Source: a virus (taxonomy: Duplodnaviria; Heunggongvirae; Uroviricota; Caudoviricetes). Taken from it: a DNA stretch of 64,000 nucleotides. Positions 44,901 to 49,799 of this stretch are shown here, piece after piece. Made by a program: the position numbers and the translations under genes. The notes beneath the pieces were generated by a model. It saw nothing but the letters and a program-made list of their open reading frames with translations, did no database searches and had not been told where the DNA came from. The stretch spans positions 187,136-251,135 of IMG/VR virus record IMGVR_UViG_3300037455_000543; one strand, given 5' to 3'. The stretch's first letter is position 1. Each line of letters begins with the position of its first letter.

Positions 44901-45809
44901 ATGGCTAGAGATTATGCTGCAGAATTCCGAAAATTATTCAGTAACGGGTGTACAGTTCAAGGCTGGGACTGGAATGCGCCTCGTTATTTTGACTCAACAG
45001 AAAACGACTGTTATTCTGCGGAAGCTGCCTTAGTTTCTGAACTTACATCAGAAGCATATAACAATTTTGGTTTCGAAGTCCTTTATTATATAAAGGCCAT
45101 AGATACAAAAATAGACAGACTATATGGCGAAGATCCGCTTGAAAATGTAGAACGTAGATTTAAACTGCAAATGTATACTGACAGCATACCAACTATGCAG
45201 AAAAGCTATGATTTACAGGGTATGATTTATAATGAGCTTATAACCTGTCAATGTACAGTCCAGCATTTTTACGAAGCATCTCAATTATCTTATCCTGATA
45301 TGCAGGATATCTATGAGGCTGAAGTTCCTAGAATAGGCGATATTGTCTATATGGAATATTCAGATACATATTATGAGGTAGTTAATGTAAAACAGTTTGC
45401 TGACAGCACTACATTCTTGTCAACTCCAATGACCTATACGTTTATCTTACGTGTATGGCGCAATAATCATGAAGATGTCGATGTTAATAAGATTAATCCT
45501 GACAAGATGGAAGAATTTAATGAATATGCTTCACTAGGCGAAACATTTAATCTTGACCTTAAAGATACTGAAGAGCATAATACAGCACATGTTCAAGCTG
45601 ATGCTACAGAAGAAAACGGCAAGATTAAAGAAGGCAGTGACATGCTCGCTATTAATGAAGATTTAAAACATGATGAAACATTAAAATATTCTGAAGAAGG
45701 TGAGATTCTCAAAGACGCAAAAGATAATGTTGAATCTCATGTCGTATATAATGACAAAGAAGTCAAGGAAGAAAATCCAGAATATTATGACCCGTTCGGA
45801 GGATGGTAA
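44901..45809 (+). CDS. gp14: Neck protein gp14-like, paralog B
   Basis: FGFEVLYY...DRLYGED...PRIGDIVY...YEVVNV; C-terminus matches paralog A. Confidence 0.75.
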   Translation: MARDYAAEFRKLFSNGCTVQGWDWNAPRYFDSTENDCYSAEAALVSELTSEAYNNFGFEVLYYIKAIDTKIDRLYGEDPLENVERRFKLQMYTDSIPTMQKSYDLQGMIYNELITCQCTVQHFYEASQLSYPDMQDIYEAEVPRIGDIVYMEYSDTYYEVVNVKQFADSTTFLSTPMTYTFILRVWRNNHEDVDVNKINPDKMEEFNEYASLGETFNLDLKDTEEHNTAHVQADATEENGKIKEGSDMLAINEDLKHDETLKYSEEGEILKDAKDNVESHVVYNDKEVKEENPEYYDPFGGW

Positions 45810-47650
45810 TGGGCTTAATAAACATATACAATAGCGTATCTAAATTGAGACCGCATATAACCTATAGGTTCTGTGCTCAAATTAAACCATTTGGTGGCAT
45901 TACTGAAACTAACTTCGATGATGTTATAGAATTTTCAATCAAGAATATTTCTTTCCCGATTTTTAGTATAAGCAACGACAATAAAAGACTTTTTGGTAAC
46001 ACACAAGTTTCTTTCCCAACAATAAAATTTGGCGAACGTGAAATGAATATTACGTTTGAAGAAACGGACGATATGATGGTATTTAAAACCTTATCACATT
46101 TATATGGAGGCAAGCCATATAATAATGAAAGTCTTCCGTTGGTAAACATAAAGGTTACACAGTTTGAAGAATCTATGCTAACTATAGTTGATGAAAAAAC
46201 TTATGTATGTAGAATAAGTCAATTTGATTTTCCTACATTCAATAACAATGACTATGGTTCGCCTATAGAACTTAAAGCATCATTTTATGTTCTTTATAGC
46301 ACATCTGATGAAACAGAGCTTGCTAAAATCAAACTTAACGATGATGGTTCCACTAAACATAAAGAGACTCATAACGGTCTCGATAATATATTCAATCAAT
46401 ATATGCAAGACATAAATGCACAAGAACGCGCCGAAGAAGAAAAAAGAAAGAATCCACCTTTACCTGCTGGTGATGGAAAACCTCTTCCAAAAGGCAAAAA
46501 TACTGACATTATACAGGGTGGGCGTGCATTATTATTACAAGGTGCTTATGATATTGTTGACCCTGCAAAACGTGAGCAATTTATTGCTGATATCGATAAA
46601 TACTCAGCCGATACAAAATTGTCTAAAGCAGAAAAAGAACAGCTTAAAAAAGATTATGGTTTAAGTGATGGATTGTTAGATGATCTACAAGGTAGCTTAG
46701 GTGCCGAACGCCTGTTTAATCCTCATTCTCATCAAGATAATTTAAAGATGACTGCTGAAGAATATGAAAATACAAAGATGTTCTTAAATAATGTTATCAA
46801 ACTGCAAATTGAAGCTGAAATTGCAAACGGTAATAAAGATTGGGAAAAACATACAAGACGATATAAGAACGCAGAAGGTGAAGAAGTCGAAGCGACATAT
46901 TATACCTATGCTGGTAAGGCATCATATGTTAATGATGAAGGAAAAACTATCACGAACAGCTTTAATAGAGAAAAAGTTAAAGAATTTAAAGATCAAAAAG
47001 TTGAAGATGTTGCATTCCATACAACAGGCAATTACTATGCAAATCTTGATACAGTATTAAGTGATATGGCACGAGGTGGTCAAGCTGCAACTATGTTTGA
47101 AGACTTTGCTATCGTTAAAAAAGAAACTGTCGAGAAAGGCCGTGCACATAGTGCATTTGGTCCAGAAGATTATGCTGATGATGCTACTAGAAAAAATACA
47201 TTAGGTATAGAATATGTAAGCGCCTCTGGTGTACATGATAAAAATGGATTACATACTACCCATTCTACTGGCCGTTCGGGCTATATCGAAATCGTTGATG
47301 AAAGCGGCAAAAAAGCACGTTCGCAGGTTGAGGCAGTAGGTGAAGTGGTTGATGATAAAATTCGTGCTAAAGGTAGTAAAAATGCATTATATCATAATGA
47401 ATCGCAAGATCTTGTTCTTAAAGCTGTAACTGATGATATGAATGAACGTGGTGTTGGCGCATTTAACTTCAATAATGCCACTATTGATAGTACTGAACAC
47501 AACCAAAGTAACATTCATAAAAACCAGCGCGGTAAGACAGAACTCATCGCACACGATAATGTTTCTAATAAGGGTAAAGAGGGTGAATCTTCCGTAGATG
47601 CTATGGAATCTACAGTAGCAAACATTAATAGCTGGACAGCTGCTAAATAA
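45809..47650 (+). CDS. Tail-tube-fold protein with C-terminal amidase-like domain
   Basis: ISFPIF...FGEREMNITFEETDD...VKVTQF...CRISQFDFPTF...LKASFYV; C-terminal FHTT/AHSA/LGIEY/IAHD. MGLINIY start parallels MGLCNLY at 3448. Confidence 0.6.
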   Translation: MGLINIYNSVSKLRPHITYRFCAQIKPFGGITETNFDDVIEFSIKNISFPIFSISNDNKRLFGNTQVSFPTIKFGEREMNITFEETDDMMVFKTLSHLYGGKPYNNESLPLVNIKVTQFEESMLTIVDEKTYVCRISQFDFPTFNNNDYGSPIELKASFYVLYSTSDETELAKIKLNDDGSTKHKETHNGLDNIFNQYMQDINAQERAEEEKRKNPPLPAGDGKPLPKGKNTDIIQGGRALLLQGAYDIVDPAKREQFIADIDKYSADTKLSKAEKEQLKKDYGLSDGLLDDLQGSLGAERLFNPHSHQDNLKMTAEEYENTKMFLNNVIKLQIEAEIANGNKDWEKHTRRYKNAEGEEVEATYYTYAGKASYVNDEGKTITNSFNREKVKEFKDQKVEDVAFHTTGNYYANLDTVLSDMARGGQAATMFEDFAIVKKETVEKGRAHSAFGPEDYADDATRKNTLGIEYVSASGVHDKNGLHTTHSTGRSGYIEIVDESGKKARSQVEAVGEVVDDKIRAKGSKNALYHNESQDLVLKAVTDDMNERGVGAFNFNNATIDSTEHNQSNIHKNQRGKTELIAHDNVSNKGKEGESSVDAMESTVANINSWTAAK

Positions 47651-47676
47651 AATTCAGAATTAATGTTAACAAAAAG

Positions 47677-47705
47677 TTTACAATTTAAACTTTCTTTGCT
47701 ATCTT
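47677..47705 (+). promoter_or_regulatory. Sigma70-type (early-like) promoter
   Basis: TTTACA (47677-47682), 17-nt spacer, TGc-TATCTT extended -10 (47697-47705). Confidence 0.5.
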
Positions 47706-47709
47706 TGAT

Positions 47710-48020
47710 TTTCGACATTCCAAGTCCTATTCCTCGGAGCGAAACTCAATCCAATGAGCTGTCGGTAGAGGGTAGGCCATTATGAACTTGAGGGAAAAGT
47801 TCGTCGTTTTTAACGAAATGATCAGGTATTAACTGATAATGGAACCCAATGACAGAAAATCTAGCAAATTTTCTATGTAGCCGCCATGGCATGTCAAGAT
47901 GTAGCCGGAGTACAGGATGACCATCCCGTAAGCTTGACAGTAAGCCCCGAGAGTTGAAGACAGATGCTTTAGCACTTCTTTACCTATCTTCCTGGATAGG
48001 CTCGAAGTCTCTGAACAGAT
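47710..48020 (+). ncRNA. Candidate structured non-coding RNA (family not recognised)
   Basis: No ORF of 60 aa or more inside; 124/280 G+C by hand count over 47721-48000; many nested hairpins; promoter upstream. Confidence 0.5.
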
Positions 48021-48081
48021 ATTTTAACTGTGATGTATAATGAATATAAATATATAAAAGTTTAAATAAAGGTGAATAAAT

Positions 48082-48970: not shown

Positions 48971-49396
48971 ATGGCTAGTTTTAAGCAATATCTGGTTAAC
49001 GAAAACAATAAAATATCTGATGAAATCGCAAAGAATGCGACACTTAAGAAAGCAGATAAAGAAGATACTATAGAAGATGTAGTATATAATGCTAATCCAT
49101 CTGTCTGGACAGGCAGGATTGTAAACAATAGAAAATATTTAATCTATAACGGGAAATATCTCGATTTGACTAGCCTTAAGGAAGAAATAACCAGACTATA
49201 TGACAGTAAGGGATATTCGGGTTATGGTTTTGCAAAACTTGACGAGCACGACCTTATAAGATATACTAAGGTCAAAAATATCCTAATGAGGTCATTTGAG
49301 TCTGAACTTAACGACTTTATTGACCCGGTTTCCATGGCTGAAATCATGTTCATGAATGAATTTAAGGATTTCGAGTGGAGACCTGAGGAGCTGTAA
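48971..49396 (+). CDS. Putative internal head protein
   Basis: Leader MASFKQYLVNE; TATAAATA at 48956-48963. Confidence 0.65.
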   Translation: MASFKQYLVNENNKISDEIAKNATLKKADKEDTIEDVVYNANPSVWTGRIVNNRKYLIYNGKYLDLTSLKEEITRLYDSKGYSGYGFAKLDEHDLIRYTKVKNILMRSFESELNDFIDPVSMAEIMFMNEFKDFEWRPEEL

Positions 49397-49397
49397 G

Positions 49398-49799
49398 ATG
49401 ATTGACCATAATGCTTTATTGGAAATCAAACCACTAGTCAATGAAAATATTATTAACGAAACATTATCGAGAATCGGTATTATAAACCGCAGAAAAAAGA
49501 TAATATACCAGTCCTGCCACTTGCTTAAGCAATATGATTCTTATTTTTTAGTTCATTTTAAGCAATTATTTCCATTATCTACGAATAAAGAAGGCTTTGC
49601 CGGTTTCGGCGATGTAACTAACAAGGATATAATTCGCAGAAACAGAATCGCATATCTCCTTGTAAAATGGAACATGATTGAAGTAATAAATCCAGAAGAT
49701 ATAGAACCACATAATATTTTCGTAGATACTCTTTCATACAGTGAAGCTCAAGACTATGAAAGAATTAAGAAATTTAACCTTAATAACTTAGTTCTGTGA
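49398..49799 (+). CDS. regA: Translational repressor RegA
   Basis: ETLSRIGI...IYQSCHLL...YFLVHFKQL...RRNRIAYLLVKWNMIEV; start set at MIDHN. Confidence 0.92.
   Translation: MIDHNALLEIKPLVNENIINETLSRIGIINRRKKIIYQSCHLLKQYDSYFLVHFKQLFPLSTNKEGFAGFGDVTNKDIIRRNRIAYLLVKWNMIEVINPEDIEPHNIFVDTLSYSEAQDYERIKKFNLNNLVL

Follow-up and report, generated by a model that had tools for sequence, protein, structure and literature searches.

A full-length cow-rumen-2 RNA gene with a predicted three-domain, double-pseudoknot fold in a T4-like jumbo phage of the ruminant gut

The window analyzed here, a whole stretch of 64,000 nucleotides (nt) from IMG/VR virus record IMGVR_UViG_3300037455_000543 (a 424,163-bp virus genome with direct terminal repeats), carries on its + strand a structured RNA gene of the Rfam family cow-rumen-2 (RF02947) in its full-length form. 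The gene lies in an open reading frame (ORF)-free gap of 431 nt (47651-48081) between the stop codon of an ORF of 615 amino acids (aa; stop at 47650) and the next ATG (48082). An earlier inspection of the letters of this DNA (the sequence-only reading) had called the gap the largest of the window and rich in G+C, and both descriptions held. It is the longest non-coding gap, a rival gap of 416 nt in a greedy ORF map being coding, and positions 47713-48010 have 44.6% G+C compared to 33.9% for the entire window and 16-28% for the other intergenic gaps. Small ORFs (40-48 aa) overlap the gap and none of them is credible. The 615-aa protein encoded upstream (45803-47650) matched neither Pfam nor PHROG families at the thresholds applied, and the gene downstream codes for a baseplate hub protein matching phrog_150 and PF12322 (T4_baseplate). 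The box TATAAATA recurs ahead of this gene at the equivalent position in relatives and, on established T4 knowledge, is taken to be its late promoter.

A scan of the whole window with Rfam returned RF02947 as the sole match, on the + strand at 47848-47952, scoring 104.1 bits where the gathering score is 66 (E 5e-19) and covering model positions 1-106 of 106. The sequence-only reading had proposed a novel structured non-coding RNA of ~310 nt with its own promoter and had named an Rfam scan as a way to check it. The scan gave a match above the cut-off, and the claim of novelty does not stand: the central 105 nt belong, at full length and with a high score, to a catalogued family. The remainder of that description was borne out: a conserved promoter and covarying helices in relatives support a structured non-coding RNA of ~300 nt, the extent given (47677-48025) is close to that of the conserved unit, ARAGORN identified neither a tRNA nor a transfer-messenger RNA (tmRNA) in the window, and no RNase P, signal recognition particle (SRP), or 6S RNA was matched by Rfam at E<=10 over 700 nt. 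Known ribozyme and leader families were likewise without an Rfam match at E<=10 (700 nt) or at E<=5 (11 homologous loci), and the domains flanking the core on its 5' and 3' sides matched no Rfam family in the window copy or in 11 others. The cow-rumen-2 motif was reportedly described by Weinberg et al. in 2017, and its Rfam entry is classified as gene/sRNA with unknown function. No blastn match was found among 50,697 records of GenBank phages, and in the literature searched the family was named only by the two versions of the Rfam 15 paper, in a table of families improved with R-scape.

The RNA of the window resembles the catalogued motif in that the whole 106-position model was matched, including its hairpin and long stem, and in that both come from ruminant gut metagenomes. 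It differs in that the Rfam model represents only one third of the conserved RNA, leaving the 5' domain (~135 nt), the 3' domain, the promoter, and the first pseudoknot (PK1) outside, and in that the carriers identified here are T4-like jumbo phages with 3-4 copies each. The identity and architecture of the element, i.e., a full-length cow-rumen-2 RNA of ~300 nt with three domains and two pseudoknots, are regarded as close to certain. The coordinates of its features are collected in Table 1.

Table 1. Features of the cow-rumen-2 RNA gene and its borders (window coordinates; helices as predicted from the alignment of relatives).
Feature	Position	Strand	Remarks
Promoter	47677-47707	+	-35 TTTACA 47677-82, 17-nt spacer, -10 TATCTT 47700-05, TATCTTTG to 47707
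Whole conserved RNA unit	47712-48028	+	four paralogues and ~40 distinct relatives align over the span
5' domain core, P1	47726-35 with 47768-76	+	three pairs covary; one pair changed on both sides in 20/32
Inner helices of P1	47740-42 with 47762-64; 47746-48 with 47755-56	+	
P2	47778-81 with 47838-41	+	encloses P3, the small hairpin, and P4
P3	47782-87 with 47799-804	+	covariation-supported
Small hairpin	47805-15	+	lineage-specific
P4	47821-25 with 47833-37	+	covariation-supported
PK1	47792-94 with 47845-47	+	P3 loop GGG with CCC just 5' of the Rfam core
Central domain	47848-47952	+	Rfam cow-rumen-2 motif, P5-P9
P5 hairpin	47854-60 with 47868-74	+	
P6	47888-90 with 47944-47	+	
P7	47892-98 with 47933-39	+	
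P8	47906-10 with 47925-28	+	
P9	47915-16 with 47921-22	+	
PK2	47849-51 with 47922-24	+	AUG with CAU in the loop region of the innermost hairpin
3' domain (~65 nt)	47948-48011	+	conserved in four paralogues and relatives
Element A, ACAGAU	47960-47965	+	internal loop or 5' side of Pa; covaries with B as a direct repeat
Pb	47983-88 with 47995-48000	+	covariation support
Element B, ACAGAU	48015-48020	+	3' tail, just past the GUCUC box
TATAAATA	48045-48052	+	T4-type late promoter (presumed) of the baseplate-hub gene; 3' boundary of the RNA, outside it

Approximately 40 distinct sequences related to the RNA were collected from IMG/VR and from contigs of metagenome-assembled genomes (MAGs). The unit conserved among them measures ~300 nt to the GUCUC box (48011) and ~317 nt including the tail, and the ends of the RNA were provisionally placed where conservation stops. 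Transcription probably starts at ~47712-47717, near a conserved ACAU. The TTTACA-17-TATCTT promoter of the sequence-only reading is present at 47677-47705 and conserved in relatives; in the window it has 9/12 consensus matches and a TG ahead of the -10. A -35/-10 pair of the same type was identified in 27/39 distinct relatives, in 22 of which the -10 ends 24-26 nt ahead of a TCCTCGG motif. The pattern TTTACA-N16-18-TATnnT occurs 83 times in the genome compared to 9-23 times in shuffles (4-5x enriched), so that it represents a genuine class of promoters in the phage, one resembling the early promoters of T4.

Contigs from the RNA libraries of four studies carry the window RNA or its paralogues, which indicates presence only and is not proof of transcription. 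One such contig of 195 nt corresponds to 47703-47897 with zero differences, and in another run a single contig extends across the locus. The flanking contigs of one RNA run end at 47687 and resume at 48022, such assembly holes saying nothing on transcript ends. RNA-sized contigs begin near the equivalent of 47710, and contig ends of repeated elements prove no transcript ends either. The paralogue at 337.8 kb (L032) is without the usual TTTACA-17-TATnnT promoter (G000:C1:337990-338090); TATATATAAT and a small hairpin (CUUAGG-UUCC-CUAAG) are located upstream of it, and one RNA-library contig reaches 58 nt upstream of the usual 5' region of the RNA.

The secondary structure was derived by comparison. 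RNAalifold predicted 47 pairs from an alignment of 32 sequences, 28 of them with compensatory changes, and two pseudoknots emerged from a scan of every column pair, giving a combined model of 59 pairs in 13 helices. Under this model 94.8% of the cells are paired compared to 72.8% with shuffled 3' partners and 34-39% with partners slid by 1-3 columns, and the observed covariation score was not attained in any of 500 shuffles. Covariation among relatives, the second check named by the sequence-only reading, was found in 43 pairs changed on both sides (32 relatives; 34.5 with shuffled and 16-23 with slid partners). The z-score of the fold was -0.9 on the + strand and -2.4 on the - strand, so that thermodynamic folding is uninformative on strand or structure and the evidence is comparative. 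The + strand is fixed by the Rfam match, by the promoter, and by a P1 pair, U25-G67, that is G-U in 32/32 sequences and would give a C-A mismatch on the opposite strand.

The predicted fold is compact, with three domains tied together by two pseudoknots. The 5' domain (47726-47847; ~135 nt conserved) contains the invariant stretches UCCUCGGA(G/A)CGAA, CAAUG, and UCGGUAGAGGG, and P1 encloses GGAGCGAA, CAAUG, and GUCGGUAGAGGG, also invariant. A divergent relative (L061) has UACA/UGU where others have CCUC/GAGG, which by our reading keeps three of the four pairs. Helices 4, 5, and 7 of the model, in the P2-P4 region, have 3, 6, and 4 pairs with compensatory change. All four aligned pairs of PK1 covary and 87% of its cells are paired, with >12 complementary combinations such as GAAC/GUUC, GGUAC/GUACC, and ACUGUA/UACAGU. 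In the cow-rumen-2 core, helices 9-12 have 7, 2, 7, and 4 pairs changed on both sides and 93-99% of cells paired. Both scored pairs of PK2 covary, through the combinations AUG/CAU, GUG/CAC, UCG/CGA, GCG/CGC, and CUG/CAG. The 3' domain consists of a conserved linker CCCGAGAGUUGAAG, a variable hairpin Pa (~47956-78), the hairpin Pb, and two boxes, the invariant AUAGGCU (47996-48002) and GUCUC (48007-11). Within the 3' domain, Pb was the only helix supported by the class-1 alignment; visual inspection suggests that pairing between the linker and the GAUCUC/GUCUC box is possible in some lineages, not in all.

Most helices listed in the sequence-only reading reappeared, with CCATTA/TAATGG, GAACTT/AAGTTC, ATCAG/CTGAT, AGAAAAT/ATTTTCT, TGTCAAG/CTTGACA, and CCTATC/GATAGG all covarying, and the others lacked such support or had it in part. 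CGACA 47713/TGTCG 47760 was not sustained, since only 3-15/32 sequences pair per position. The CGTT/AACG hairpin exists but is an insertion restricted to the lineage of the window, and from GGAT/ATCC the GG/CC pairs are conserved while AT (47923-24) together with C47922 sits in the pseudoknot instead. A possible 5'-3' closing pair (AAGUC/GGCUU) has nearly invariant bases and is neither supported nor excluded, and the same applies to a long-range AGCC/GGCU pairing of invariant bases predicted by RNAalifold. The 9-nt direct repeat ATGTAGCCG is present at 47875 and 47899 as described, and nearly all of the 32 relatives keep its UAGCCG core at the two sites.

A swap of the 5' domain was observed in the 415,750-bp relative (G001; L067:1270-1500), where core and 3' domain are kept and an unrelated, GC-rich 5' domain of ~150 nt replaces the UCCUCGGAGCGAA...GGUAGAGGG domain; this paralogue is syntenic with the 337.8-kb copy of the window genome. 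Variant 5' domains were also identified in L066 and L061, and the 5' domain appears to be an exchangeable module. Three likenesses to known RNAs were considered and set aside. The invariant AGUACAGGAUGACC (47909-47922) agrees at 11/14 positions with the sarcin-ricin loop of 23S rRNA (AGUACGAGAGGACC), but the supported pairing (GG/CC hairpin and PK2) differs from the sarcin-ricin fold and the agreement may be coincidence. GUCGGUAGAG (47760-47769) in the 5' domain is identical to a common tRNA D-loop sequence; the likeness misfits the predicted pairings and ARAGORN found no tRNA-like gene there. A resemblance to helix P4 of RNase P misfits the predicted pairings as well.

Elements A and B vary jointly in the relatives as a direct repeat (e.g., ACGGAAU, CCAGAA, GGUCCAU, GACGAUA, GCAGGU, and UUGGAUUU). 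The repeat measures 6-9 nt in most types and the similarity reaches ~27 nt in longer RNA forms. The summed common length of each A with its own B was 78 compared to 48.4 +/- 4.4 under random pairing, and 0/10000 permutations reached 78. B is followed by a semi-conserved AUAUUUUAAC(U/G)GUG to ~48034 and is probably transcribed, since a terminator-like hairpin is located beyond it in loci with convergent neighbors. A third strand able to pair with A/B was looked for between -330 and +150 nt without result, and a search of the remainder of the genome gave neither an extended A/B target nor a family of target sites with shared flanks. Pairing of the 3' strand of Pa with A or B was rejected as an alternative, since only about half of the sequence types would allow it.

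The carrier is a T4-like jumbo phage of the ruminant gut. T4-type neighbors of the RNA copies include the PF12322 baseplate hub, a RegA-like repressor, a gp53-like wedge protein, and a gp46/Rad50-like protein, TATAAATA boxes stand ahead of structural genes, and ARAGORN identified 50 tRNAs in four clusters and one tmRNA at 123.3 kb. The RegA-like translation repressor (phrog_242, E 1e-28; 49356-49799) is encoded by the third gene downstream of the window RNA, with the baseplate-hub gene and an ORF of 141 aa without family in between. The genome holds four cow-rumen-2 copies above the cut-off, at 164.8, 235.0 (window), 337.8 (- strand), and 388.3 kb; four copies were identified in the 415,750-bp relative, three in a 411-kb record, and four in a 266-kb contig of a "Bacilli" MAG. 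Pattern scans yielded 52 loci in IMG/VR. Occurrences in the species-genome collection were confined to ruminant-gut MAG contigs of inconsistent taxonomy and are most simply explained as mis-binned phage, and sequencing runs of 15 bovine, goat, and sheep gut studies hold all or part of the stretch. Three of the four copy positions are common to the 416-kb relative although the flanking proteins of the 424-kb and 416-kb phages are only 50-62% identical, showing that the copies are old and under selection; the RNA blocks themselves are nearly identical. The cumulative GC skew of the genome rises up to ~133 kb, falls to a global minimum at 340-346 kb, and then rises to the end, the minimum coinciding with the divergent gap that holds the 337.8-kb copy.

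No protein family recurs beside the copies in their Pfam/PHROG context, the neighbors being, depending on the copy, a baseplate hub, a DHH phosphoesterase, a gp46/Rad50-like protein, or small ORFs. Several classes of protein-linked RNA were rejected. Ro60/TROVE (PF05731) had no match in the 424-kb genome, where positive controls were matched, which rules out a Y RNA of the YrlA type. Reverse transcriptase (PF00078) was also without a match in the genome, ruling out a retron msr-msd, a group II intron, or the RNA of a diversity-generating retroelement (DGR). TnpB (PF07282) gave a single sub-threshold match (16.7 bits) >10 kb from the nearest RNA copy, and an omega/reRNA (HEARO, IS605-orfB) was dismissed as no IscB/TnpB is adjacent and the neighbors are structural or repair genes.

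On balance, we favor reading the locus as a stand-alone gene for an early-transcribed, trans-acting, full-length cow-rumen-2 RNA, one of four diverged paralogues, and hold this to be somewhat probable. Host RNA polymerase would transcribe the RNA early from its own TTTACA-17-TATnnT promoter, and the product would act in trans as a folded particle. Its ~70 invariant, mostly unpaired nt may present a macromolecular partner with a binding or active surface, the RNA serving as a ribonucleoprotein (RNP) scaffold or as a decoy; this mode of action is proposed tentatively and falls somewhat short of probable. Several gene copies would supply dosage, and the variable single-stranded element shown twice, in the Pa loop and in the 3' tail, may add copy-specific recognition. 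A number of points weigh against the stand-alone, trans-acting gene. The expression data are assembled contigs of public runs only, in which DNA carry-over is possible, and the transcript ends are placed provisionally by conservation. The paralogues keep fixed genomic positions, which a trans-acting gene does not require, even if gene order in T4-like genomes is conserved anyway. In most loci a co-directional gene follows 50-90 nt on and the RNA has no terminator of its own, an arrangement equally suited to a leader acting in cis or to a primer transcript. The A=B covariation is not naturally accounted for if the RNA is a scaffold or decoy and nothing else, and no function, partner, or target was found.

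The orientation of the neighboring genes bears on whether the element could instead be a cis-acting operon leader, i.e., the 5' part of early transcripts with a role in processive antitermination or as a 5' stabilizer. Among ~45 distinct loci the next gene is co-directional in the large majority and starts mostly 49-94 nt past the GUCUC box, no terminator was predicted for the RNA in the window, the positions are conserved (the RNA always lying ahead of the baseplate-hub gene, for example), and the same element fronts unrelated operons as would suit a general transcription device. HK022 put and Bacillus EAR are structured RNAs just past a promoter, co-directional with the operon and present in several copies per genome (putL and putR), and the cow-rumen-2 RNA is similarly placed after its promoter, co-directional with the downstream operon in most loci, and multi-copy. 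However, put (~70 nt) and EAR (~120 nt) are much smaller than an RNA of ~300 nt with two pseudoknots, neither their models nor any other leader family in Rfam was matched, and the downstream genes have a late promoter of their own between the RNA and the ATG. Furthermore, L039/L045, L047, and L071 are followed by convergent genes, and a strong hairpin terminator is located past the tail in L039 and L047; it was called on the opposite strand, but A and T runs flank the stem on both sides. These convergent loci form a self-contained promoter-RNA-tail-terminator unit, which favors a stand-alone gene over an obligate leader. The leader is rated as an improbable explanation. A protein gene in decay, a mobile-element end, or mere repeated DNA would account for the overlapping ORFs of 40-48 aa and the repetition in the genome, but is effectively refuted by the covariation: helix changes are compensatory rather than codon-like and indels do not come in threes. 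In addition, the copies are syntenic in phages whose proteins are 50-62% identical, the genome lacks a transposase, reverse transcriptase, or TnpB, and the Rfam match is full-length, so that the probability of this explanation is negligible. Dense invariant unpaired nucleotides and a double pseudoknot are typical of ribozymes and aptamers, and both occur here. A ribozyme whose pseudoknotted invariant core processes its own tail or cleaves or ligates RNA, with A and B marking substrate positions, would also agree with the missing link to a protein partner gene and with the investment of the phage in RNA biology (50 tRNAs and a tmRNA). It is nevertheless rated as very unlikely, as no known ribozyme family was matched, nothing points to a cleavage site, and A=B identity is unlike known substrate recognition, which uses complementarity.

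The direct repeat itself, with identity in place of complementarity, would be expected if a loop of the RNA paired with the template strand of the DNA flanking it on the 3' side. Element A in the Pa loop could re-anneal to the template strand at the downstream B, lock a persistent R-loop within the A+T-rich stretch of the tail, and prime the leading strand, in the manner of ColE1 RNA II and the R-loop origins of T4, such that the RNA would be the transcript of an origin. The element would then be the RNA half of a new type of phage replication origin, or of another RNA-DNA device, at 3-4 sites per genome, and the A/B pair might more generally serve as a programmable module for recognition, carried by a conserved scaffold. 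In ColE1, an upstream loop of the RNA is reported to contact the template strand near the origin (Masukata and Tomizawa 1990), and an A=B repeat would allow such a contact between loop and template. A host-polymerase transcript without a protein product ahead of A+T-rich DNA is a further likeness to ColE1 RNA II and to oriF/oriG of T4. Persistent hybrid formation in ColE1 depends on the fold of RNA II (PMC5043065). Early replication of T4 starts from R-loops at several dispersed origins, of which there are at least five; oriF and oriG combine a promoter with an unwinding element rich in A+T, an early promoter serves oriE, and three of the origins are located where transcription diverges and the skew shifts (PMC3016281). 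The origin transcript is the sole reading that predicts identity rather than complementarity between upstream RNA and downstream DNA. A and B covary strongly, and searches in cis and across the rest of the genome gave no complementary partner. The 3-4 copies per genome are dispersed, two of the four are in divergent gene gaps (48/622 gaps are divergent), three of the four are <8 kb from one of five local minima of the cumulative GC skew, including the global one, and most loci are without a terminator. These placements are weak evidence (p ~0.02-0.03, rough binomial), since gene strand switches at the same places as the skew minima and divergent gaps, which confounds the test. The repeat is short (6-9 nt in most types) and some copies precede convergent genes and a terminator. 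The RNA has no homology to ColE1 RNA II or the T4 origins, which it resembles in logic only. Moreover, the R-loop origins of T4 need no specific RNA fold or sequence (PMC3016281), leaving the ~70 invariant nt and the two pseudoknots unexplained. An origin or comparable RNA-DNA device is therefore considered unlikely.

Close parallels among known systems are ROOL and GOLLD, both large ornate RNAs of phages and prophages (ROOL, PMC5737381); a cage structure has been mentioned (PMC13622246). Like them, the cow-rumen-2 RNA is a non-coding RNA carried by phages, highly structured and pseudoknotted, that came to light through comparative genomics, in part from the cow rumen, and that has neither a linked protein nor a known function. 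It differs from them in having no sequence or model match, in being half their size or less, and in occurring in multiple copies among structural and replication genes rather than in tRNA islands.

Since 2017, Rfam has listed cow-rumen-2 as a motif of 106 nt with neither an organism nor a function assigned. The present analysis adds the full-length, double-pseudoknot architecture, the phage that carries the RNA, the number of copies and their synteny, an apparently modular 5' domain, and the covarying repeat, such that the family now has a carrier, a likely early timing, a size of ~300 nt, and a predicted three-domain, two-pseudoknot fold. A defined construct is thereby available for probing, cryo-electron microscopy, and pull-downs, and cow-rumen-2 joins ornate phage RNAs such as ROOL and GOLLD that rewarded structural study. 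The covarying direct repeat is an unusual and directly testable constraint that could point to an RNA-DNA mechanism.

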